Below, one piece after another: positions 1 through 29,859 of a stretch of DNA of 31,660 bases; positions within the stretch are counted from its first letter, which is position 1; each line of letters starts with the position of its first letter. Made by a program: the position numbers and the translations under genes. Origin of the DNA: Chiloscyllium plagiosum (taxonomy: Eukaryota); contig NC_057752.1 in assembly GCF_004010195.1 (NCBI RefSeq), positions 15,734,380 through 15,766,039 of the forward strand, given 5' to 3'. The notes below the pieces were generated by a model. That model made no database searches and was not told where the DNA came from. It worked only from the letters and a program-made list of their open reading frames with translations.

Positions 1-216
1 GGAGAAAGTGAGGACTGCAGATGCTGGAGATCAAAGCTGAAAAATATGTTGCTGGAAAAGTGCAGAAGGTCAGGCAGCATCCAAGGTGCAGGAGAATCGA
101 CGTTTTGGGCATAAGCCCTTCTTCCTGAAGAAGGACTTATGCCTGAAACGTCGATTCTCCTGCTCTTTGGATGCTGCCTGACTTGCTGTGCTTTTCCACC
201 ACACATTTTTCAGCTC
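1..216. mobile_element. Fold-back (inverted-repeat) Penelope-like short element, family A
   Basis: Left arm ~35-124 is the reverse complement of right arm 125-216 (GCTGGAAAAG..GGCAGCATCC / GGATGCTGCC..CTTTTCC). Same family recurs at 3270, 17063, 19820, 24756, 26095 and 29699. Hammerhead-like CTGAAGA (125-131) and GAAACGTC (145-152). Confidence 0.75.
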
Positions 217-2689: not shown

Positions 2690-2880
2690 GGAAATTGGTG
2701 CAACTCTGATGGACAAAGTTAAAAAACACACACCAGGTTTATTTGGAAATACAATCTTCCGGAGCGCTGCTTCTTCATCAGGTAGCTCGCTTCTTCCAAA
2801 TAAACCTGTTGGCCTATAATCTGGTGTTGTCTGATTTTTAAATTTGTCTACCCCAGTCCAACACTGGCACCTCCTCATTC
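2690..2880. mobile_element. Fold-back Penelope-like short element, family B (degenerate)
   Basis: ACAAAGTTAAAAAACACACACCAGG..TTTATTTGGAA arm inverted against TTCCAAATAAACCTGTTGG..CTGGTGTTGTCTGATTTTTAA..CCCCAGTCCAACACTGGC. Confidence 0.7.
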
Positions 2881-3149
2881 ATAACTCTGAAGGCTGATCT
2901 CCCAATATCCAACTCGTGACAAGGTACAAGAATCTGGAGAAAGAAAAGTCTAGTGAAGAGGAGCAGACGACCAATACCTTCTGGATCTGCCGAGATCGCG
3001 GGGTGCAGACTCTGGTTCAAACCGCAGCTAAACTCTCTCACTGGAATTGCTCTTTGGCTTCTCCCGTCTCCGTCATCAATCAGGTTTCAATCTAATATTC
3101 AGCCACAGCCCGTTATTACGGAGGCAACAGGTTCTGTAGCGTTTACTGC

Positions 3150-3790
3150 AAGGGTAATTGAATAAAAAGAGTAGGGAAGTGTTCTCACATCCGTAAAGGG
3201 CTTTAGCGAGGCTGCATCTTGAGCTCTGTGTATGGAGCTGGTCGCCTTTCTCAAGGAAAAAATCAACTAGGCAAAAGTGAGGACTGTAGATGCTGGAAAC
3301 CAGAGTTTAGATTAGAGTGGTGCTGGAAAAGCACAGCAGGTCAGGCAGCATCCGGGGAGCAGGAAAATCGACGTTTCCGCCTCCATTCCTGATGAAGGGC
3401 TTTTGCCCGAAATGCCGATTTTCCTGCTCCTCGAATGCTGCCTGACCTGCTGTGCTTTTCCAGCACCACTCTGATGTAAACCCTTTCTCAAGGAAAAGTA
3501 CAATTACATTGGAGTAGGTCAGTGTAGGTTGATTCGGCTGATTACTGGGATAACAGCTGTATTCGCAGGAAAGGATTAACAGGTTGGCCTTGCAGCCACT
3601 GACATGGGGTAAGAACGAGAAGAGCTGACAAATTTACTTACTGAAACCTGTCAGTTTTTAAGGAGGGTTTCAAAGGGTGGATGCTGAAAGTGTTCTCATC
3701 CCTTATTGGAGACGAGAACTAGGGGTGCACATCCAAAATGAGGGGATCCTATTTAAAACAGGGGTGAGGATGGATTCTATTCCCTCAGAC
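3150..3790 (+). mobile_element. Decayed CR1 LINE fragment hosting a family A insertion
   Basis: Degenerate CR1 ORF2 C-terminal and 3' sequence on both sides of the 3270-3480 insertion. Confidence 0.6.
3270..3480. mobile_element. Fold-back family A element with target-site duplication
   Basis: Inverted arms; CCTTTCTCAAGGAAAA duplicated at 3245-3260 and 3482-3497; CTGATGA-A-GGGC-TTTT-GCCC-GAAA at 3389-3412. Confidence 0.8.
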
Positions 3791-4503: not shown

Positions 4504-5051
4504 CTACGGCCACGGTCTCCAGACACTGTGTGAAACAGTCCCTCTCGATGAGTCCTGGTGACCAGGGACTGGTTTTGGCGAAACAATAACTTTCTGGGGG
4601 CACTCTAGAAAAGGTGTTGAGCCGGAGTCATAAAGTTCATGATGTTTCGCTGTGAAGTCGCTGGGGTTTGGCATCTGATGCGAGACTGCGGACCGAGCGG
4701 CGAGGAAATGCGAAACATTGCTTGCGGGAGAGTTGCTAGCGACTGCGGGGACAACAGCCATTGGCCTCACGGCGTTGGAGGCGGCGGGACCGACATCCCA
4801 AGCCCCGGAATCTCGCTGTCCTGGTCGGAGAGGATCCAAAGTGGGGCCGGAGGGGCTCGGGCACTCCGGCATTCGGCGGTTACTGTTCTTCTCGGAAGCT
4901 CGCTCCAGGAAGACCGCTAGACCCTCCATCAGACCGCTCCGGGACTGCGAGTTGAACCTGGCGCAGCTTCGAACGAAGCTATTCACCTGCAGGAGGCACT
5001 CCTTAAAGCCAGCCTCGTAGTTCTGCCGTGTGATTTCTGCTCCCTGATGTT
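4504..5051 (-). CDS. hes7: hes7-like exon 4 (Orange domain, Pro/Ser-rich region, WRPWP-stop)
   Basis: Acceptor ..TGTTTAAACAG at 5053-5052; YEAGFKECLLQVNSFVRSCARFNSQSRSGLMEGLAVFL is Orange-like; TAG at 4506-4504. Confidence 0.92.
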
Positions 5052-6286
5052 CTGTTTAAACACAAGGTCGGTCAGTGATATGCGTTTGGGGACATCCGAA
5101 AATTGCCCCTGAGGACTATACTGAACGCACGATCCTGTACATTTTGGAACTGTACGTTAATATATTTACATTAATGGACGCCCCTTATTAATAGTGTTCC
5201 ACTTAAACCAATCTATAACCGATTACTTCGAAATTCCAAATAGGATCTCAGCAAAGAATCAATTCCGAGCTCCGGGTACAAATCCCGATCCGGGGCCCCT
5301 CTGGGAGGTGGGTTATGATTTTGCATGTCCCAGCTTTATTTTTGAACACAAGGTAGCGAACTAAAGGCAGGAGGAATCATTGATTACCAATACAACAAGT
5401 ATCAATGCCCAATCTATGCACACTAAAGGTATCGATTTTACCGAACGCAAACTGGATGTTTAAAGCCAACTCCGCAGATGGGATGGTGAGCAAAGACGCG
5501 CATGGAAACTGGAATCACTAGCCACAGCAGCAAGATCAAGGCAGATACCCACCCGGTCCATTCGCAAGCGCCGCGTTTTTCAGATATTGAACCGTCATTT
5601 CTAAGATTTCAGCCTTCTCCATTTTACCGTTTCGGAAACTCTAAACAGAAAGAGACAGAAACGGGGTTGGGGAAAGAGAAACGAAACCTGGGTAAAAGTG
5701 GAAGGACATGCGAGAGATATCAAGGTATCTTTTTGTTCGGAGCGCCACACACACTTCATACTAATCCCGGGAAATTTCACACTTAAGCCGCGGAAAGGTT
5801 CCTTCAACTGTGTCACTTCGCGACAAAAAGGTGCCCTCACCTCGTTCTGGGAATGCGTCAATAAGAAAGATTTCAGTTGGTCCAAACTGCGGTTCATTCG
5901 ATCGCGTCTCCGTTTTTCCACTAAAGGTTTAAGTAACTGTTGATATAGAATGGAAAGGGTTTTTTATATTGATGTGACCACACTTTGCATCCAGTTTGCC
6001 CGGTCCAGCTCGGAGCTGGGGGCTGTTGCTGCATCCGGGGGTTGGGGGCCTAAACTGCTCAAATCTGGGAGGAAACGTCCTGACTCCCTCCCAATTGTTT
6101 TCTTGCAATAATTTAAATAACACTTCAGTACCAACGAATAACTGTATCCTGGTTAATGCAGCTTTTAATACATATGAAAACAAAACAAAACGGGCTAATG
6201 TGGAGCACATTTCGTTTAGTCCATTGTCAAATCACTTTTACCTTTTTAACCTCCCTGACATCAGACGATTCTGCTGCCATCTTCAT
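4504..6286 (-). CDS. hes7: hes7/her7-like bHLH-Orange transcriptional repressor; join of 6286-6242, 5936-5841, 5640-5553, 5051-4504; 777 nt, 258 aa
   Basis: All three introns are GT..AG with consistent phases (0,0,1). Spliced ORF: MKMAAESSDVREVKK|LLKPLVEKRRRDRMNRSLDQLKSFLLTHSQNE|SFRNGKMEKAEILEMTVQYLKNAALANGP(E)|HQGAEITRQNYEAGFKECLLQVNSFVRS...SVWRPWP*. Basic-region proline, Orange domain and WRPW mark the Hes family; LKPLVEKRRRDR plus terminal WRPWP point to the Hes7 clade. Confidence 0.88.
5553..5640 (-). CDS. hes7: hes7-like exon 3 (loop and helix 2), 88 nt
   Basis: Polypyrimidine acceptor TTCTGTCTCTTTCTGTTTAG; KMEKAEILEMTVQYLK; donor G|GTGGGT. Confidence 0.92.
5841..5936 (-). CDS. hes7: hes7-like exon 2 (basic region and helix 1), 96 nt
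   Basis: Acceptor ..TATATCAACAG; LLKPLVEKRRRDRMNRSLDQLK; donor GAG|GTGAGG. Confidence 0.93.
6242..6286 (-). CDS. hes7: hes7-like exon 1 coding part, 45 nt
   Basis: ATG at 6286 (second in-frame ATG at 6280), about 65 nt downstream of the TATA box; donor AAG|GTAAAA; phase 0 joins exon 2. Confidence 0.8.
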
Positions 6287-7187: not shown

Positions 7188-7388
7188 GATGTAAAGGCGC
7201 CGGTGTTGGACTGGGGTATACAAAGTTAAAAATCACACAACACCCAGTCCAACAGATTTATTTGGAAGCACTAGTTTTCGGAGCGCTGCTCCTTATGAAG
7301 TGCTCCACGTGATGGAGGAGCAGCGCTCCAAAAGCTAGTGCTTCCAAATAAACCTGTTGGACTATAAGGTGGTGTTATGTGAGTTTTA
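7188..7388. mobile_element. Fold-back family B element with 12-bp TSD
   Basis: Inverted arms (TTAAAAATCACACAACACC..GGAAGCACTAG / CTAGTGCTTCC..GGTGTTATGTGAGTTTTAA); ATTCTGAATCCT at 7176-7187 and 7389-7400. Confidence 0.82.
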
Positions 7389-7699: not shown

Positions 7700-8900
7700 A
7701 TCCTTCACAGTCAAACGTACAGTTACAGTCCCGATATCCTACACTGTCAGAGATACAATGCAGATACACTGCACAGAGTTACAGTATGCATTTCCTGCAC
7801 ATAGTTACTGTACACATTTCCTGCACAGAGTTACAGTACAGATATTCTGCACAGAGTTACTGTAACAGATATTCTGCACAGAGTTACTGTTTATATTTCC
7901 TGCATAGAGTTACAATACAGATATCCTGCACAGTTATAATACAGATAGTCTGCACAGAGTTACAGCACAAATATCCTGCACAGAGTTACAGTACAGATTT
8001 CCTGCAGAGTTAGTGTACAGATTTCCTACAGAGTTACTGTACAGACTTTCTGCACAGTTGCTGTAACAGATGTCCTGCACAGAGTTACTGGATGGATAGC
8101 CTGCACAGAGTTACTGTACAGCTTTCCTGCAGAGTTACAATACACTTTTCCTGCAGAGTTACTGTACAGATTTCCTGCAGAGTTACAGTACAGCTTTCCT
8201 GCACAGAGTTATGGTACAGATTTCCTGCAGAGTTATGGTACAGACTTTCTGCACAGAGTTACAGTACAGATTTCCTGCACAGAGTTACAGTACAGATTTC
8301 CTGCAGAGTTACTGTACAGATTTCATGCAGAGTTACAGTACAAATTTCCTGCAGTTACAGTACAGCTTTCCTGCAAAGTTACAGTACAAATTTCCTGCAG
8401 AGTTACAGTACAGCTTTCCTGCAGAGTTACAGTACAAATTTCCTGCAGAGTTACAGTACAAATTTCCTGCAAAGTTACAGTACACATTTCCTGCAGAGTT
8501 ACAGTACAGCTTTCCTGCAGAGTTACAGTACAAATTTCCTGCAGAGTTACTGTGCAGACTTTCTGCACAGTTGCTGTAACAGATGTCCTGCACAGAGTTA
8601 CTGGATGGATATCCTGCACAGAGTTACTGTACAGATTTCCTGCAGAGTTACAGTACATATTTCCTGTACAGAGTTACAGTACAGATAGCCTGCACAGAGT
8701 TACAGTGCAAATTTCCTGCACATATTTACTGTACAGATGTCCTGCACAGAGTTACTGGATGGATATCCTGCACAGAGTTACTGTACAGATTTCCTGCATA
8801 GAGTTACAGTGCAAATTCCTGCACAACCTGTGTTACAGTACAGATATCTTGCACAGCCAGAACTGCAGTGAGATACCCTGCACAACTAGACTTACGATGC
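7700..8900. repeat. Tandem minisatellite, 22-24 bp unit CCTGCA(CA)GAGTTACAGTACAGATTT
   Basis: About 50 head-to-tail units, homogeneous at 8100-8560 and increasingly degenerate toward both ends. Confidence 0.95.
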
Positions 8901-9346: not shown

Positions 9347-9505
9347 TTATTGGATGAAAGTAAATCTACAATTCCTCACCACATGACATATATCACTTGG
9401 ATATGAAAATGTAAATACAAATCGGCTATCTCTGCTCTAAAAGCAGTTGTACTGGATTCAAAACATTGAGCATTTTCGAGCATTTTTTGAGCATTCTCTA
9501 TTTTA
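9347..9505 (+). repeat. ~160-bp direct repeat, copy 1
   Basis: TTATTGGATGAAAGTAAATCTACAATTCCTCACCACATGACATATATCACTTGGATATG...TTGAGCATTCTCTATTTTA; second copy at 10435-10603. Confidence 0.92.
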
Positions 9506-9519
9506 ATTTGGGACCAATG

Positions 9520-10434: not shown

Positions 10435-10603
10435 TTATTGGATGAAAGTAAATGGAAGTAAATCTACAATTCCTCACCACATGACATATATCACTTGGAT
10501 ATGATAATATAAATACAACTCATTTATCTCTGCTCTGAAAGCAGTCATGCTGGATTCAAAACATTGAGCATTCTCAAGGATATTTTGAGCATTCTCTATT
10601 TTA
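10435..10603 (+). repeat. ~160-bp direct repeat, copy 2
   Basis: Homologous to 9347-9505, with an internal 10-nt duplication (GAAAGTAAATGGAAGTAAATCTAC). Confidence 0.92.
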
Positions 10604-10769
10604 GTTTCAGCTATACCTGCATAGGATCAAAAATGATTCCCAGGGATTTAATTCAGTTTCACAATTATACATAGTCTGAGTAACTGATCCCTTGACCCCT
10701 GCACACCCCAAACGGGAGGTGAATGTTTCCATTGCCATCTCCTCTTCTTTTTGTAGTTTTTGGGAGAAT

Positions 10770-13499: not shown

Positions 13500-14485
13500 T
13501 AAGAATATAAGAAATAGGAGCAGGAGCACACCAATCATCCTTTTGAGCCGTTTATCATTCAGTAAGTTGATGGCTGATCTGATTGTGGTCTCAGCTTCAC
13601 TTTTCTGCTTCTCCACTCTTTCTTGACTCTGTTGTTCATCAGAAGTTTGTCTAAGTAAACCTCTTTTGTCAGAGGGGTGGTGAATTATTTACTGCAGAGG
13701 GCTATTGATGCTGGGTCATTGAGCCCTGAGGTAGATTTTTAATCAGTAATGGAATCAAGGATTATGAGGAAAAGGCTGGAAAGTAGATTTGAAAAGGATC
13801 AGATCAGCCAGGTTGTCATTGAATGATGGAGCAGGCTTGATGGGTCAGATGGTTAAACAGCCCACTCCTGCTCCAACATCTTATGGAATGTATTTCACAA
13901 GACCAGGCTCCATGCCCTTCTACTCTGGGGAAGAGAGTTTCACAATATCTGAAATTCTTGAGGGAAGAAATTCCTCCTGATTTGCATCCTCAATTATTAT
14001 TTTTAAGTTGTGAGGAAACTTCCTCTTAACAGTCATTTTACCAAGTCTTCCTCAGAATCTTGTATGTTTCAATAAAATCCCTTCTCAATCCCAATTGATT
14101 CTGGCCCAACCTGTTGAAGCATTCTTCTGAGGCAATCCTTTCATCTCAAGAATTCAATGGTGTAAAGCTTTTTTGAACTACTTCTTCTGAAAGTAGCTCT
14201 CTCTTTAGGGAAGGAGATCAAAACTGCTTCCAATACTCCAGGTGTGGTTTCACCAGCACCTGATGTATTTATAGTAAAAATTCTGTTCGTTTTCATTTCT
14301 CCTCCTTTGCAGTGAGGGCTAATATTCCATTTGCCATTGTATCCAAAATGTCAACTCTCTTGCTCCTCAGATGTTGCTTGACCTGCTGTTCTTTTCCAGT
14401 GCCACATTTTTTGATCCTAATTGCTCAGTTGACCTAATTGATTCATGTCGAAAGACATTCAGATCCCTCTGAAATGCCCACACTT
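13500..14485. mobile_element. Mosaic of CR1 fragments (minus 13500-13650 and 13900-14485, plus-strand tail 13660-13890) with a family A half-copy near 14345-14415
   Basis: TAAGAAATAGGAGCAGGAG tail, GAATGATGGAGCAGGCTTGATGGG tail, AATACTCCAGGTGTGG (PHLEY) remnant. Confidence 0.6.
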
Positions 14486-15830: not shown

Positions 15831-15845
15831 ATCCTTCTTCAGAAG

Positions 15846-16017
15846 TTAAAAATCACATAACACCAGGTTATAGTCCAACGGGTTTATTTGGAAGCACTAG
15901 CTTTCGGGGCGCTGCTCCTTCATCAGGTGATTGTGAAGCAGGATCATAAAACACAGAATTTATAACAGAAGATCTCAGTGTCATGCAACTGAAATGATAT
16001 ATTGAACAAACCTAGAT
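15846..16017 (-). mobile_element. Single-arm family B Penelope-like element with TSD
   Basis: TTCTTCAG(A/G)AG at 15835-15845 and 16018-16028; reverse-complement homologous to 20447-20597. Confidence 0.75.
15895..15929 (-). ncRNA. Minimal type I hammerhead-ribozyme motif (best-preserved copy)
   Basis: Minus strand CAC-CTGATGA-A-GGAGC-AGC-GCCCC-GAAAGCTA-GTG: stem I CAC/GUG, intact core CUGAUGA and GAAA..UA, stem II 4 of 5 bp, palindromic AGCU in place of stem III. Confidence 0.55.
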
Positions 16018-16124
16018 TTCTTCAGGAGGATTAAGAGTTAAAGAAGGGTCACTGGACCGAAACTCTCCTTTCTCTTTGCTGAGTTTTTCCAACGCTTTCT
16101 ATTTTTGTTTCTGAGCAATCTGAT

Positions 16125-16849: not shown

Positions 16850-17900
16850 GAAAATTATACAATAGAAGGATTTGGACAGGTTAGGAGTGTGGGAAAAGAA
16901 GTGACAGATGTGGGAAAGTCTGACGTTATGCACTTTGGTTGGAGGAAAACAGGCAGATTGTTTTGTAAACAGGGAAATGATTCAGAAATCTGAATCATGA
17001 ACTGACTAAGGACTCCTAGTGCTAATTCTCTTAAGATGAACATGTTGGTTCAGTTGGTACTTAGAGGAAAAAGTGAGGACTGCAGATGCTGGAGATCAGA
17101 GCTGAAAATGTGTTGCTGGAAAAGCGCAGCAGGTCAGGCAGCATCCAAGGAGCAGGAGAATCGACGTTAAGAAGGGCTTATGCCCGAAACGTCGATTCTC
17201 CGGTACCTTGGATGCTGCCTGACCTGCTGCGCTTTTCCAGAAACACATTTTCAGCTCAGTTGGTACTTCGGAAGGCAAATACCGTATTAGCATTTATTTC
17301 AAAACGACTAGAATACAAGAACAGAAATGCACTGCTGGGACTGTATAAGGCTCTGGTTAGACCACATTTCGAACATTCTGAGCAGGTTTGGGCCCTGTAT
17401 CTAGGAAAGAATGCCCTGGTACTGGAGAAAAACCAGATGATGCTCCCAAGAATTATCTCAGGAATGAATAGCTTGTCATATGAGGAGTGGTTGAGGACTC
17501 TGTGCCTGCACCTGAAGGTGTTTAGGGGGATGAGCGTGGACCTTACTGAAGCGTACAGAACACTGAAAAGACCTGGAGGAGTGGGCATGAAAAAGATGTT
17601 TCTACTACCAGGAGAGTCAAGGACCCGAGAGCACTACCTCAGAATGAAGCGATGAGTGTTTAGAACTGAGATGAGGAGGAATTTCAGCCAGAAGGTGGTG
17701 AATTTGTGGAATTCATTATTGCAGAAGGCTGTGGAGACCGAATCATGAGTGTTTTCAAGGCAGATTTTATAGGTTCTTGATTAATAAGGGGATCAAAGGT
17801 TACAGGGAGAAGGCAAGAACATAGGGTTGAGAAACATATCATCCATGATCCAATGGCTGAATAGCTTAATTTTGCTCATAGTTTCATTGTTTCTGTGGTT
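16850..17900 (+). mobile_element. CR1 LINE ORF2 C-terminus and 3' tail, interrupted by a family A element
   Basis: KANTVLAFISKRLEYKN..LYKALVRPHFEHSEQVW..GESRTREH. Confidence 0.85.
17063..17255. mobile_element. Fold-back family A element with perfect 13-bp TSD
   Basis: TCAGTTGGTACTT at 17050-17062 and 17256-17268; near-perfect inverted arms. Confidence 0.88.
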
Positions 17901-18956
17901 TGATTCATAAATAGTTTTTGGTTTAGTACCGAAATTTGCTTCGTTGAGATAGTTAATGTTCACCCTGTAGGATTTTGGGCACATGTTAAACAACTATTAG
18001 TTATGACCAATTAGGACTCAGCTTCCTAGGTCAACGAAATGACTGATATTTTCAAGAAAAAACGGAGATAAAACTGAGGTACGGCTGTGAAGCGAAGCTT
18101 TTTTTCAAAAAAAGTGCTCTTTGAGGTGGTACCTGTCTGAAATGATTGATGAATGCGTGGCATTGTTCTCTGGTGAACACGATGAAAGTAGACTGGACAA
18201 TTCCACTTGAGGAAGAAGCCATCACCACGCCCGTAAATGATGGTATTCCCCTGTATCTGTTGCCCTTGCGCTAGAGCTAGTTACTGCCAATTAAATACTA
18301 CAGAAAGTGCAATAGAAATTTTCCTTATACAATGTCAATAGTCGAACCTTCTCTCTGATGAACAGAGTTACAGTTCAGTGGCAAACTGCTGTTCTGCTTC
18401 AGCATTCCTTTTCCATGCAATTTGAACACACGAAAATGTCAGCACTGAGTTAATGCTGACAGCACTGAATTGGGTGCTATTAAAATCTCAGAGGCAATGA
18501 GCGGTGTGGGAACATTTCTGTCTTGCGATGTCTGTTAAACTCTATCGGACCCTTAAACCATGTAAGAGTCAATAACACGTGTTTGGGAAGGAGAATAGAC
18601 CACACATTCTGTGTAGTAAATAATACCGGTGCTTCCCGTGGGAAAGGGCAGTCTTTCTTTCAGATCTCGCTCAGTCAGTGCTTTACTGGGAACCGTCTGG
18701 AGAACGGGTTGAGGAAGACGTTGGTAATTTCACACCGTGCCGCGAATTGAGCCGGGGTAACTGCAGCCGAATAGTTGAACATATTTTCACGTTGTTAAAG
18801 CACTTTAACATTTGCACAAGTACCAAACAACACCTTGCCTTTATGTAGTGGGTTTAAAATAGTAACGAAAGGTCCCTCTTCAAGGGACCGACTATGAAAA
18901 AAAATTACATGGAGTCACTGAGATTGGTAAAAGAAAAAGGTTTTAACTAAACAGAC

Positions 18957-19160
18957 TTAAAAATCACAGAACACCAGGTTGTAGTCCAACAGGTTTAATT
19001 GGAAGCACTAGCTTTCGGACCGCTGCTCTCTCACAACCACCTGATGAAGGAGCGACGCTCCGGAAGCTAGTGCTTCCAATTAAACCTGTTGGACTATAAC
19101 CTGGTGTTGTGTGATTGTTTACTTTGTCCACCCCAGTCCAACACCGACATCTCCACATCA
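18957..19160. mobile_element. Fold-back family B element
   Basis: Inverted arms; TAACTAAA(C/A)AGA at 18944-18955 and 19161-19172; hammerhead-like CAC-CTGATGA-A-GGAGC-GAC-GCTCC-GGAAGCTA-GTG at 19038-19072 (GAAA mutated to GGAA). Confidence 0.82.
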
Positions 19161-19299: not shown

Positions 19300-20740
19300 A
19301 ATCTCAGGAGACAGGTTGGTCAGCGCTCTTGCTTTCATTGCTCTGACCTTTGAGTATAGGAGTTGGGAAATCATGTTGAGGTTGTATAGGACATTGGTGA
19401 GGCCTCTTCTGGAGTACTGTGTCCAGTTTTGGTCGCCCAACTATAGAAAGGATATTATTAAACTGCTGAGGGTTCGGAAGAGGCTTATCAGAATGTTTCC
19501 AGGAATGGAGAGTTTGAGTTATAAAGAAAGAATAGATAGGCTGGGACTTTTTTCACTGGAGCATAAGAAGTGGAGAAGTGACCTCATAGAGGTTTATAAA
19601 ACAGGGTTAATAGTGTCTTTCCCCTAGGACGTGGGATTTCAAGACTAGAGGAACATTTTTAAGGTGAGAGGAGAGACTGGAAAAAGACACAGCGGCATTT
19701 TATTTTACACAGAGGGTGGTTCATGTGTGGAATGAACTTCCTAAGGAAGTGGTGAATGTGGGCACAACTACAATGTTTACACTCTCTCTCACTCACACAC
19801 TCTCTTACACAGGCCAGTCCTTTTGGCCGAAACGTCAATTTTCCTGCTCCTTGGATGCTGCCTGACTTGCTATGCTTTTCCAGCACCATTCTAATCTAGA
19901 CTCTGATTTCCAGCATCTGCAGTGCTCACTTTTGCCTACTCTTACATAGGCAGTCATGCAGACTCTCTCATACACAAGCTCTCCCTCTCATAAGCGCACA
20001 CATACACACCCCACACTCTCACCCACACATGCACCCTCTCACAGGCTTATACCCCTACATACTCATACACGTTACTTATACACACATGCATACACACACT
20101 CTCTCACATGCACTCACACCACACTCACTCTGTCTCTCCTGCATGTGCACACATATAAGTTTATAAGGTGAATTTGTATTTGCAGAATTTTGTTTTATTT
20201 TGCTCAAGAAATGCATAACCTGCAGTCAATCCATGTAAGATTCTGTAAATCCCACTTTAGAAATAGAACCAGTTAAGGCCACTGACAGACTTTAACCTCA
20301 CACCTTTAATGCATTGTCTGAGCTGAAATGGAACTTATTGTTAGAAAACCTGAAATTATCTTGAGAATGTAACTTAAAAGAATTGGGGAATTTACAAATT
20401 AAAGAACTGAAACGAACAAACCCATTCTAAATGATGAAAGACTTAATTTCAGCTCCATGACACTGCAATCCTTCTGCTACAAGCTCTGTGTCTTATGGTC
20501 CTGCTTCACAACCACCTAATAAAGGAGCAGCGCTCCAAAGGCCAGTGCTTCCAAATAAACATGTTGCACTATAACCTGGAGTTGTGTGATTTTTAACTAT
20601 GTTTAAAAGACATTTGGATAAATACATGATCAGGAGAGGTTTGGAGAGATTTGGGCCAGGAGCAGGCACTGATACTAGTTTAGTTTGGGATAACTTTTGG
20701 CATGGACTGTTTCTGTGCTGTATGACTATGATTCTATGGC
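19300..20740 (+). mobile_element. CR1 LINE 3' part, split by a nested insertion at 19780-20595
   Basis: LYRTLVRPLLEYCVQFWSPNYRKD; the 3' UTR resumes at 20599 and ends in a CTGTATGACTATGATTCTATG tail. Confidence 0.85.
19780..20595 (+). mobile_element. Longer family B Penelope-like 3' segment (CA-rich tract, AT-rich body, family B terminus) with a nested family A half-element at ~19820-19937
   Basis: AC(A/T)ATGTTTA duplicated at 19770-19779 and 20596-20605; ends in the family B terminus; the inner element is flanked by CTCTTACA(C/T)AGGC duplicates. Confidence 0.7.
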
Positions 20741-21675: not shown

Positions 21676-22519
21676 CAAAGTCACTCCTTATCACGACAGA
21701 TTGCCATTCCTGACATCTTCCTGGTGAATAGGTGCTTTAATATCTGTTTCACAGTGGAGTGTCCGAAACTGCAAACTTACACCTTATGACTGTCTTCTGA
21801 ATATAAACACATTATGGTCTTGGCACCATCTTATTTTCTCGCAACATAAATTTAGAGAGTTGCAACTCTGCCATTAATTTGCACTTCCTATTTTTCACAG
21901 GGGGAGCAACTTTCTTGAGATGATTTTTGAGGAGATCATTGAGAATAATACAGAGAGTGTGTGAGTAATGTAGAAGAGGTATTTAACAGGAGGAGTCCAT
22001 ACAAGAGAAACATTGTATAGTGGTAATTGATGGAAACTTGTGATCAGAACCAAGTTTCTGAAACTCAGATTGCTGATATCTAGCTGTCACCAAACTTGAA
22101 CCATTCACTCTGTTCCTCTCTCCATCGGTGAGGCCAAAGGTTGGGTTTCCACAGCACTTTCAGCTTTCATTTCAGATTTCCAGCACCTGCAGTATTTTAT
22201 TTTTATGATAATTAGAAGGAAGGTGATCCAAAAGCAGTCCAAAGGACAGTGTAATCTCTTCTGGGTGAATTACTGAGGTATGTATTAACCTACATTGGGG
22301 CCTGGTGGCACAGGAAGAATCCATTTGGGTCCAGTGGCTTTTTGAAACAAATTGGAATCACCTCCCTGCTTGCCACAATCAGGTCTACAAACTTCTTCCT
22401 CATAAATTTCCTTCAGAAAATTACCATTCAACATTTTGCCCACTACTTTGTCAGGACTTCCAAGTCATAACACCTGGTCAGGAAGAAGAAGAAGTAGGCA
22501 TACATTGCGCCTAAGCTAT

Positions 22520-24605
22520 CAGGGTTAAGTGAATTCCCAGAAGAATCTTAAGAAGGAAATAAGAAGAGCAAAAAGATGTTATAAAATGGATCTGGCAGAT
22601 AATCCCAAGAAGTTCCATATCTATATTAAGAGTTAAAGATCAGCATGAACATCTATGTATGGAGCCACAGGAGATGGGGACATTTTTAATGAATATTTCT
22701 CCTCACTGTTTACTGAGGAGAGAATCATGGTTGCTAAGGAAACAAGGGAAACAAGTGATGATGTTTTGGACTGCATTCGTATTATCACTTAGGAGTGTTT
22801 GCAGCCTTAGAGCACATTAAGATGGATAAATCCCCTGGGCCTGACCAAATCCATCCTTGAACACTGTGGGACGTTGGGGAAGAAATTGCAGAGGCCTTTG
22901 CAGAGATCTTTGCTTCATCTTTAGCCATGGGTGATGTTCCAGAAGCCTGGAGGATGGCTAATGTTGTTCCATTGTTTAAAATGGTAGCAAAGACAAGCCA
23001 GGGAACTACAGGCCAGTGAGCCTGACATCAGTGGGAGGCAAGTTGTTGGAAAGGATACTAAGGGACAGGATTAACGAATTGGATAGTCAAGGTCTGATTA
23101 GGGATAGTCAGCGTGGATTTGTGCATGGAAAGTCATGTCTGACAAATTGGTTACAGTTTTTCAAAGAGCATAGATGAGGGTGGGGTGGTGGATGTTGTCT
23201 ACGTGGACTTTAGTAAGGCCTATGGCAAGTTCCCACACAGCAGGCTAGTCATGAAGATTAGGTCACATGGAATCCAGGGAGAGCTAGACAATTGGATTCA
23301 AAATTGGCTTGATGGTAGGAAGCAGCGGGTGATGGTTGAAGGTTGTTTGTTATTTGTTACTTAGATGAACGATCTGGATGTGAATGTACAAGGCATGATT
23401 AGTAAGTTTGTGTGGATGATTCAAAATTAGGAGGTATCATTGATAGCAATGAAGGTTACCAAAAATTACAGAGGGATCTTGATCAGATGGGGAAGTAGGT
23501 TGAGGATTGGCAAATACAATTCATTACAGAAGGCGTGAGGTGATGCACTTTGGAAAGTCAAACCAAGGTAGGACTCATACAGTAAATGGTAAGGTCCTGA
23601 GGAGTATTGTATTCAAGGGAGACCTAGGAGTACAACTACATAGTCCACTGAAAGTGGCATCACAGGTAGACAGGGTAGTGAAGAAGGAATTTAGATTAGA
23701 TTACTTACAGTGTGGGAACAGACACTTCAGCCCAACAAGTCCACACTGACCCTCTGAAGAGCAACCCACCCAGTCCCATTCCCCTACACCTAACACTACG
23801 GGCAATTTAGTATGGCCAATTCACCTAACCTGCACATCTTTGGACTGTGGGAGGAAACCGGAGCACCCGGAGGAAACCCACGCAGACATGGGGAGAATGT
23901 GCAAACTCCACACAGACAGTTGCCTGAGGTAGGAATTGAACCCGGGTCTCTGGTGCTGTGAGGCAGCAGTGTGCCACCGTGCTGCCCACTGACCTTCATT
24001 GGTTGAGGCATTGAGTATAGGAGTTGGGATGTTATGTTCCAGTTGTATAAGCCATTGGTGAGGCCACACTTGGAGTATTGAGTACAATTTTGATCATCCT
24101 GTTGTAGGAAAAACATAGTTAAACTGGAAAGCGTTCAAAGAAGATTGATGGGGATTGTCAGGACTATTAGGTTTGAGTTACAGGGAGAGGTTAGCCGGGA
24201 TAGGACTTCATTCCTTGGAATGTAGTGGAATGAGGGCTGACTTTATTGAGGTGTATAAAATCATGAAAGGCATAGATAGGATGAATGCATATAGTCTTTT
24301 TCCCAGGGATGGGGAATTGAAAACTAGAGGGCATAGGTTTAAGGTGAGAGGGAAAGATTTAAGAAGGACCTGAGGGGCAACTTCTTCATGCAGAGAGTGA
24401 TGTGTATATGGAATGTCAGAGAAAGTGGTTGAGGCAGTATAATAAAAAATTTAAAAAACATTTCAACAGGTACATGGATGGGAAGAGTTTAGAGGGATAA
24501 GAACCAAATGCAGGCAATTAGAATTAGCTGAGTGAGCACCATGGTCAGCACAGACCAGTTTAGGCTAGAGGGCCTGTTTCCATGCTGTATTACGGTGTGA
24601 TTTTA
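22520..24605 (+). mobile_element. ~2-kb CR1/HER1 ORF2 pseudogene (RT domain to 3' tail)
   Basis: DKSPGPD, GNYRPVSLTS, VDVVYVDFSKA, WIQNWLDGRKQRV and ..DDSKL remnants with stops and frameshifts; HE1 SINE nested at 23691-23987. Confidence 0.9.
23691..23987 (-). mobile_element. HE1 V-SINE nested in CR1
   Basis: GTGGGAGGAAACCGGAGCACCCGGAGGAAACCCACGCAGAC (V domain, reverse complement); head ends GCCACCGTGCTGCCC. Confidence 0.9.
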
Positions 24606-24755: not shown

Positions 24756-25141
24756 GGAGAAATTGAGGACTGCAAATGCTGGAGATTAGAGTAAATAATA
24801 CAACTAGGCCATCACCTCCCCCACTAAAATTCTTGATAAAGAGCTTATGCCCGAAACATCGATTCTCCTGTGCCTCGAATGCTGCCTCACCAGCTGTGCT
24901 TTTTCTGCACAACACTCTCAACACACACACACCCACACACAAATACCCATACACACCCATGCCCCCCCCACAAACACCCACACAAAAATACCTACCCACA
25001 CCCACCCCCCACACACATATTCACCCATACACACACATGTGCACACACACATGCATACACCCACCCATATACACACATACACACACACGTGCACGCCCAC
25101 ATGCACACACCCACCCATATACACACACACACACACACACA
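24721..25141. repeat. (CA)n and CA-rich low-complexity tract with a family A remnant at ~24756-24915
   Basis: Pure (CA)17 at 24721-24754; degenerate CA tract 24911-25141. Confidence 0.9.
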
Positions 25142-26005: not shown

Positions 26006-26320
26006 GACCACCTGATGAAGGAGCAGCGAGCTTGAAAGCTAGTGCGTCCAAATAAACCTTTTGGGACTATAAACTGGTGTGATGGGATTTTTGGGGGAAA
26101 GTGAGAACTACAGATGCTGGAGATCAGAATCGAGAGCGTGTGGTGCTGGAAAAGCGCAGCAGGTCATGCGGCATCCGAGAAGCAGAGAATGGACCCTTCG
26201 GGCAGGAACCCTTCAGAAGGATGCTGCATGACCTGCTGTGCTTTTCCAGCACCACACACTCTCCACTCTGGTGTGATTTTTAACTTTGTCCACTACAGTC
26301 CAACACCGGCATCTCCAAAT
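26006..26320 (+). mobile_element. Family B arm with a nested fold-back family A element (~26095-26268)
   Basis: CAC-CTGATGA..GAAAGCTA-GTG at 26009-26044; CTGGTGTGAT duplicated on either side of the inner element; family B terminus resumes near 26268. Confidence 0.75.
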
Positions 26321-26837
26321 CCTTTCGAACTGGGATTTGCACTAGGCTGGATCATTTCTAATCTGCATGACCGCTCTAGCCGAGTAGCCACATTGAAAAC
26401 ACAGGGGAGTAGGGCAGGGTGTCAGATTTTCCCGGGAGTGTGTGAGAGAGTGAGGTAATGAACACAGTCGCGCAGATTTGCTCAGAGTCATACAGTGCTG
26501 AAAAGGCCGTTCGACCCATCGAGTCTCACCTACAATAGCCACTAGTAAATGTCAGATGGCTCTTAGCGGGATAAACTCGCGGTTATAATAAGGTATTGAA
26601 CAGCATAGACCAGCTCTTGTTGCTATCAGCGCATTCGAACTGAAACCATATTAAAACTTGCTCAGCCTGTCCGGATTATTTATATATCTGCCGATAAGAT
26701 AATCAGTCCAACCCCAACCAAGACTTAACGTCTGCGATAGGAACACCATTTGGCAAGCGAACCATATAAAAGATGCTTCGAGGATCAAGGAGACAGAAAG
26801 TAAAAACAAGCAACGACTGACAGAAAGACTAAAGTAG

Positions 26838-27010
26838 GAAGTGCTGGAGGAACTTAGCAGGTCTAGCAGCATCTATGGAGTGAAACAGTCAGTGTTTCGG
26901 GTCCAGTGACCCCTCCTTCAGACTCGAAAAATTAACAGATTTTCTCTCTTCACAGATGCTGCCAGACCTGCTGAGTTTTCATTTCGGATTTCTAGCATCT
27001 GCTTCCTTTG
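26838..27010. mobile_element. Fold-back Penelope-like element, family C (older; remnants also at ~16035-16112 and ~22090-22200)
   Basis: AGCAGGTCTAGCAGCATCTATG / CACAGATGCTGCCAGACCTGCT arms; minus-strand CTGAAGG-AG-GGGTC-ACTG-GACCC-GAAAC. Confidence 0.65.
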
Positions 27011-29032: not shown

Positions 29033-29350
29033 GAATCATAGAATCTCTACTGTGTGGGGACAGGCCCTTCGGTCCAACAAGTCCACACTGACCCTCCGAA
29101 GAGTAACCTACCCATTTCCCTACCCTATTACTTTACATTTACCCCTGGCTAATGCACCACATCCCTGAACACTGGGCAATTTAGCATGGCTAATTCACCT
29201 AGCCAGCACATCTTTGGATTGTGGGAGAAACCAGAAAACCCAGAGGAAACCCACACAGACATGGGGAGAATGTGCAAACTCCACACAGACAGTCGCCTGA
29301 GGCTGGATTCGAACCCCGGTCCCTGGCACACTGAGCCACCGTGCCACCCC
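29033..29350 (-). mobile_element. HE1 V-SINE
   Basis: Tail AATCATAGAATCTCTACTGTGTGG, V domain, B box (GGATTCGAACC on +), head GAGCCACCGTGCCACCCC. Confidence 0.9.
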
Positions 29351-29698: not shown

Positions 29699-29859
29699 TG
29701 AAAATGTGTTGCTGGAAAAGTGCAGCAGGTCAGACAGCATCCAAGGAGCAGGAGAATTGATGTTTCGGGCATGAGCCCTTCTGTGTGCCTGACCTGCTGT
29801 GCTTTTCCAGCAACACATTTTCAGCTCTGATCTCCAGCATCTGCAGTCCTCACTTTCTC
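29699..29859. mobile_element. Fold-back family A element with ~17-bp TSD
   Basis: CTAC(A/T)GTTGTACAGAGC at 29682-29698 and 29860-29876; the full terminus is on the right arm. Confidence 0.85.

Follow-up and report, generated by a model that had tools for sequence, protein, structure and literature searches.

The window, the whole stretch of 31,660 nt from Chiloscyllium plagiosum analysed here, contains a hairy/E(spl)-type bHLH gene on the minus strand (4507-5963), with a Pfam HLH match and a last exon ending in WRPWP, and a tRNA-Ser(GCT) gene on the plus strand (2260-2341), 2.2 kb from the bHLH gene. The bHLH gene is probably HES7-like, and human HES7 is likewise flanked by tRNA genes. Repeated sequences include a minisatellite whose 24-26 bp unit recurs about 42 times (7774-8823) and in which the hammerhead pattern had no match, a 156-bp direct repeat whose copies are 90% identical and 1.1 kb apart (9354-9509 and 10452-10607), and a roughly 300-bp SINE-like repeat present in three copies that are 75-79% alike (755-1068, 23700-23978 and 29036-29348). 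The window also holds short insertions of three families (A, B and C) that carry hammerhead motifs. In a self-comparison, about 25 arms belonging to these families fell into 13 intervals, which together cover 3,103 bp or 9.8% of the window (Table 1). All the copies listed in the first-pass annotation were found among them, and its list proved incomplete. The LINE fragment around the longest family B copy is presumably CR1-like.

Table 1. Positions of the hammerhead-bearing insertions and their parts in the window.
Feature	Position	Strand	Details
Family A fold-back, window edge	1..216		hammerhead 125-152 with complete core and a mismatch in stem II; minus arm tailed
Family B fold-back	2713..2882		degenerate hammerhead 2750-2784 on minus arm; tail on plus arm; duplication 8-11 bp
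Family A fold-back	3261..3481		hammerhead 3389-3416, mutated palindrome and U16.1; tail on minus arm; 16-bp duplication
Family B fold-back	7188..7388		degenerate hammerhead 7306-7340 on plus arm; tail on minus arm; 12-bp duplication
Old family A fragment	14343..14411	+	starts at GAAA box
Target duplication of the 15846..16017 copy	15835-15845 and 16018-16028		11 bp, 1 mismatch; flanks the copy
Family B single arm, no tail	15846..16017	-	172 bp
Family B minimal hammerhead	15895..15929	-	all core bases; stem I 3 bp; stem II one A·C mismatch
Predicted cut of the 15895 hammerhead	between 15898 and 15897	-	
Family A fold-back	17063..17255		both arms without CUGA box; tail on minus arm; 13-bp duplication
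Family B fold-back	18956..19160	+	plus arm: hammerhead 19038-19072 (A13 to G) and tail; minus arm: truncated in stem II, no tail; 12-bp duplication
Longest family B copy	19780..20598	+	about 680 bp without nested A arm; 5'-truncated in CA-rich stretch; sits in LINE fragment; hammerhead 20513-20547 dead; duplication weak (7-10 bp)
Family A single arm with tail	19821..19938	+	starts inside stem II; nested in B copy; 13-bp duplication
Family A insertion in CA microsatellite	24756..24915		degenerate hammerhead at about 24833-24860
Family B copy with tail	26007..26321	+	interrupted by family A fold-back; hammerhead 26009-26044, core complete, stem II shortened
Family A variant fold-back in B copy	26094..26267		degenerate hammerhead on minus arm; 10-bp duplication
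Family C fold-back, related to A	26805..27005		minus arm: dead hammerhead about 26890-26921 (A9, G16.2, U16.1 changed); no duplication found
Family A fold-back	29699..29859		minus arm starts in first core box; plus arm tailed; 17-bp duplication

The hammerhead cores that had been assigned to the three families all lie at the places given for them, namely the three cores and the three degenerate cores of family B, the two cores of family A together with a partial one at 17169-17193, and the family C core on the minus strand. The consensus published for the minimal hammerheads (min-HHRs) in the end repeats (pLTRs) of metazoan Penelope-like elements (PLEs) comprises CUGANGA, an extra base before stem II, G10.1-C11.1, GAAA, a palindromic 15.2-16.2, NUH and a short stem I (PMC4209133). 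The family majorities of the motifs match this consensus of Cervera and De la Pena (2014, PMC4209133) position by position, with the extra base after A9 included, and the view that they are PLE-type minimal hammerheads of type I is upheld. Both the one unpaired base between A9 and 10.1 and the G10.1-C11.1 pair are present, the palindromic stem III reads AGCU in B and ACGU in A and is mutated in the C copy, and stem I has 3 bp in all five family B arms that cover both of its strands and only about 2 bp in family A. Compared with the min-HHRs of that study, stem II is 4-5 bp here. The turtle and shrimp PLE motifs in its supplement have a G-C palindrome in common with the present motifs, and the shrimp motif also has the CAC/GUG stem I and the CUA cut. 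The cut sites predicted after GCUA in family B and after CGUC in family A follow from the published consensus.

The sequence of stem II changes between the families while its pairing is kept (GGGC/GCCC in A, GGGTC/GACCC in C, GGAGC/GCTCC in B), as had been claimed, and this comparison is one of three families only. Within family B, two-sided changes were seen in none of eight stem II pairs, nor were any seen in the consensus folds. The three stem II types do not correspond to three separate families: since A and C have their downstream sequence in common (72-79% identity), which they do not share with B, they are two branches of one lineage, with B standing apart. At 22150-22195 lies a short piece that resembles the tail and is related to A and C, but lacks the hammerhead part.

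Most single copies are mutated, as the first-pass annotation had noted, and none of the 10 arms with both core boxes is perfect (arms 7262, 97-124 and 26189 lack the first core box and fall outside this count). The copy at 15895 had been singled out for keeping its full core and stem I. Its core and its CAC/GTG stem I are indeed kept, but stem II reads GGAGC/GCCCC rather than GGAGC/GCTCC, which leaves one A·C mismatch. Nor is it the only such copy, because all core bases are present in three of the 10 two-box arms (15895, 26009 and 125), in each of which stem II is damaged. The majority family B motif is predicted to fold into stems I and II (-9.1 kcal/mol), which the 15895 copy is not.

Single copies are weak evidence, and what counts is the majority within a family. 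Being homologous, the copies are not independent of one another, and a state held by the majority across many of them lends stronger support. This bears on the suggestion that the motifs are chance matches inside unrelated repeats, which draws on the descriptor scans of the window. No copy passed the strict hammerhead descriptor, which had 0 matches in the window, and the hammerhead is absent among the 16 Rfam matches up to E=10, in which the microRNA-family matches are the fold-back hairpins. With one core mismatch allowed and no stem I condition, 10 matches were obtained against a shuffle mean of 5.6 and maximum of 9. The loose pattern CTGANGA-N5-30-GAAA likewise gave 10 matches, only four of which are family cores, against a shuffle mean of 3.4, and none of 100 shuffles reached 10. 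Allowing one stem mismatch returned two matches (one family copy and one unrelated site; shuffle mean 0.12), and one core mismatch combined with a stem I of at least 3 bp returned four (three of family B and one unrelated), where 25 shuffles had a mean of 0.48 and a maximum of 2. Against chance, the majority letters include every consensus position in two unrelated lineages, with an equal spacing to the tail.

The majorities were also read in public contigs. The interval 19740-20640, with the dead family B hammerhead and the nested A arm, was compared with four public runs, of which three are contig runs (two from one organism and one from another) and the fourth is a raw single-cell RNA run that placed 0 reads. 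At 82-98% of depth, the majority letter of the contigs is G at 20518, G at 20521, A at 20540 and T at 20543, which restores these mutated positions, and the family B core is thus intact in most copies at the four sites reported. At 20537, the fifth mutated position and the G of the GAAA box, which is outside the contig rows listed, G is present in six of the eight window arms that cover it. Alignments within the window give the full core for B, and stem II, the GAAA box and the ACGU palindrome for A; the missing half of the A hammerhead, with the CTGATGA box and the beginning of stem II, is read in the loose contig ends before the A arm. The CUGANGA and GAAA boxes and NUH are present in the family majorities, and they are complete in 3/10 two-box arms. 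These contig letters largely refute the chance explanation, which is scarcely credible.

The carriers have the anatomy of retrotransposed insertions of a known kind. Endonuclease-positive PLEs insert with 5' truncation, an adjacent inverted copy, an optional tail of 30-40 bp at one end (PMC3846280, PMC8557442) and a target duplication of about 8-10 bp (Arkhipova 2013, PMC3846280; Craig 2021, PMC8557442). The same four traits, truncation, inverted copy, tail and target duplication, are found in the window. Target duplications scoring at least 8 (8-17 bp) flank nine of 16 intervals, with one microsatellite match not counted, against six of 131 random intervals. Among those that fall short are the copy at the window edge, the family C copy, the old fragment and two rows whose boundaries are disturbed by nesting; the long B copy (19780..20598) has a duplication score of 7. 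A 5'-truncated inverted copy stands beside the arm in the fold-backs, and a tail of 33-40 nt is present on one arm only in all nine two-armed insertions of A and B. The 3' ends fall into two classes, at about 50-66 and 90-97 nt past the predicted cut. Unlike full endonuclease-positive PLEs, almost all units here measure 70-320 bp and lack an ORF, and the duplications reach 17 bp. With a probability of roughly 0.8, these short mutated insertions with hammerhead motifs are cut-short pLTRs of endonuclease-bearing PLEs; the duplications, the inverted arms, the two 3' ends, the varied 5' ends and the decay are the observed part of this explanation.

Another known group of hammerhead-bearing sequences is formed by the non-LTR retrozymes, which are likewise non-coding, carry type I hammerheads and are related to the pLTRs of PLEs (Cervera and De la Pena 2020, PMC7229834; Li et al. 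2026). If the copies were retrozyme monomers, they would have spread through small circular RNAs produced by double self-cleavage. Retrozymes derive from PLE pLTRs and have been reported in the one chondrichthyan sampled (bioRxiv 10.64898/2026.07.22.740005), but in animals they form head-to-tail tandem units (PMC7229834; bioRxiv 10.64898/2026.07.22.740005), and none of the 13 tandem-repeat rows of this window is a head-to-tail array with a hammerhead in each unit. The absence of head-to-tail repeats from the window argues that these are not retrozymes. In contrast to retrozymes (PMC7229834), the arms here are single or inverted, with tail and target duplication, and the cut site does not form both of their ends. 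Paired arms being inverted, the cores lie on opposite strands and could not dimerise within one transcript. A retrozyme origin is accordingly very improbable.

Among the arms that reach the cut site, nearly all span it intact, the family C plus arm alone starting there, and the templates were therefore mostly uncut RNA. This is in line with the Anolis Poseidon element PAc, for which uncut RNA was the main template in vitro (PMC11167929). In PAc the ribozyme cuts 26 nt into the ORF and the main RT start is at 111-118 nt, so that the two are 85-92 nt apart (PMC11167929), a spacing close to the 90-97 nt tail ends observed here, and the tail lies between two internal RT start sites (Frangieh 2024, PMC11167929). 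The PAc ORF starts at stem II, whereas in families A and B the core-box ATG meets a stop within the pLTR, which implies that the ORF starts elsewhere or is spliced.

By analogy with Anolis Poseidon, the PLE protein would nick the target and start RT at an internal site of the RNA, of which there are two, lying about 55-65 and 90-97 nt downstream of where the cut is predicted. RT would then copy back through the uncut hammerhead and would usually stop near the upstream edge of the ribozyme, a second, inverted arm often being added on insertion. The ribozyme itself may work weakly and only in parent transcripts, either as a dimer formed through the AGCU or ACGU palindrome or with help from the protein. 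The inverted arms put cores on opposite strands, so that these insertions cannot form the dimer themselves, and the window copies are likely inert and decaying.

The observation that the templates were uncut could also mean that the motif no longer cuts RNA and is kept as a structure that binds protein or stalls RT. Published min-HHRs show no activity as monomers and low activity as dimers (PMC4209133), and Anolis mutants with a dead ribozyme still insert in vitro, with no reads ending at the cut (PMC11167929). In addition, the 5' strand of the family B stem II is predicted to pair just past the cut site (15870-15920 on the minus strand, and other B arms), and this pairing is a possible candidate for an off-state of the ribozyme. 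Such a loss of cutting is nonetheless rather unlikely, given that the catalytic boxes are kept across otherwise unrelated families (A/C versus B) and that the Anolis motif does cut when the protein is present (PMC11167929).

The first-pass annotation had regarded all these insertions as non-autonomous derivatives, a description that finds no support in family B. Its copies measure 172 bp (15846-16017), about 680 bp (19780-20598) and mostly about 90-130 bp, and their 5' ends range from inside stem II to about 620 nt upstream, most starting within about 40 nt of the cut, with no shared fixed start. All 30 bins of the long B copy are covered by contigs from three runs. The varied 5' ends, together with this contig cover, fit 5'-truncated copies of a longer element. 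In run X1 the contig depth, which is a summed depth and not a copy number, drops from about 1.4 million beyond the hammerhead to 0.5 million over it and then, in the two following bins, to 62,000 and 4,800, with values from 280 to 230,000 further upstream.

For family A, and perhaps C, a non-autonomous unit may be considered. Such a unit would measure about 130 nt, have its start just upstream of the hammerhead, be transcribed alone and be moved in trans by a PLE protein, and non-autonomous PLE derivatives have been described (Chlamys MRC1; retrozymes). A long A copy is absent from the window, and contig loose ends show family A copies piling up at one 5' edge, as a discrete short element would also be expected to do: at 19820-19829, in three runs, the ends are alike for 5-10 letters before the CUGA box, after which agreement falls (0.52-0.61). 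Within the window, starts about 20-41 nt before the cut were counted in 14 of the 25 arms, an approximate figure from local alignments with references ending at -45 and -37. The remaining arms start at scattered places (about -17 to +22), however, and the scattered starts of family A in the window contrast with its single contig edge. The centres of the fold-backs vary between copies, which argues that the hairpin is not the replicating unit, and family B has a similar pile-up although long copies of it exist. A non-autonomous family A is unlikely.

A tentative reading of the pile-up, which we hold to be possible but less probable than its absence, places the start of the parent RNA slightly upstream of the hammerhead, by a few bases. 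Internally primed RT would then run off the 5' end of the RNA and leave large numbers of "strong-stop-like" copies, 90-130 nt long, in which the ribozyme is uncut; the family A stub might in this case be self-propagating. The 5' pile-up seen here agrees with such a run-off, and a pile-up alone is compatible with more than one cause. If it were true, the copies would map the transcript start and indicate that the hammerhead is held inactive until after copying.

The search for an autonomous partner covered 173 of the 200 ORFs of at least 55 aa in the window, those left out being located in simple repeats or wholly within the first copy. Among these 173 ORFs no RT/GIY-YIG ORF tied to these ends was found; the scan returned three RVT_1 matches in LINE-like fragments away from the arms, one HLH gene and one weak unrelated match. 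The likely link to an RT/GIY-YIG element is accordingly one of insertion anatomy only. An open frame in family A was considered as a PLE N-terminus and rejected: it had 0 matches among 3,098 longer candidates, its protein search gave one spurious match (a repeat inside a lancelet P450), and two family A copies have a stop in this frame. Exact scans for stretches of families A and B returned nothing in metagenome contigs, nor did those of GTDB genomes (family A only) or viral contigs (family B). When viral contigs were scanned with a 17-base match, 94 loci were obtained, of which the longest alignment to the A arms was 54 bp at 76%, and these were taken as chance.

The insertions represent a kind of sequence that has been known since 2014, with new members, and are probably not a new class of short mobile element. 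Min-HHRs occur as several families per genome, mostly as single motifs, with some close pairs on opposite strands (PMC4209133). The searched part of the supplement of that study has no shark row, and a term search of the PMC8557442 supplement returned neither the family motifs nor four shark genus names. No paper describing shark PLE hammerheads was found in the literature, where supplementary lists may include shark families. The present families add shark-like members to the known PLE hammerheads, densely packed into about 10% of the window, and such copies are ordinary PLE debris to be annotated as such. They also touch the question of what the PLE hammerhead does in vivo; in most copies the ribozyme is uncut, and the copy starts at the upstream edge of it.

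Two family A insertions are nested in family B copies (19821-19938 and 26094-26267), a hint that older PLE copies are preferred as targets or that A was active more recently. Downstream of the A hammerhead, the sequence is predicted to form a conserved fold of two hairpins, with the tail pairing back on the pLTR. This fold has 19 pairs, with no two-sided changes among the copies at 1-124, 3270-3381, 17066-17168, 19821-19939 and 26094-26216, and is a candidate structure for protein binding or for the start of RT.
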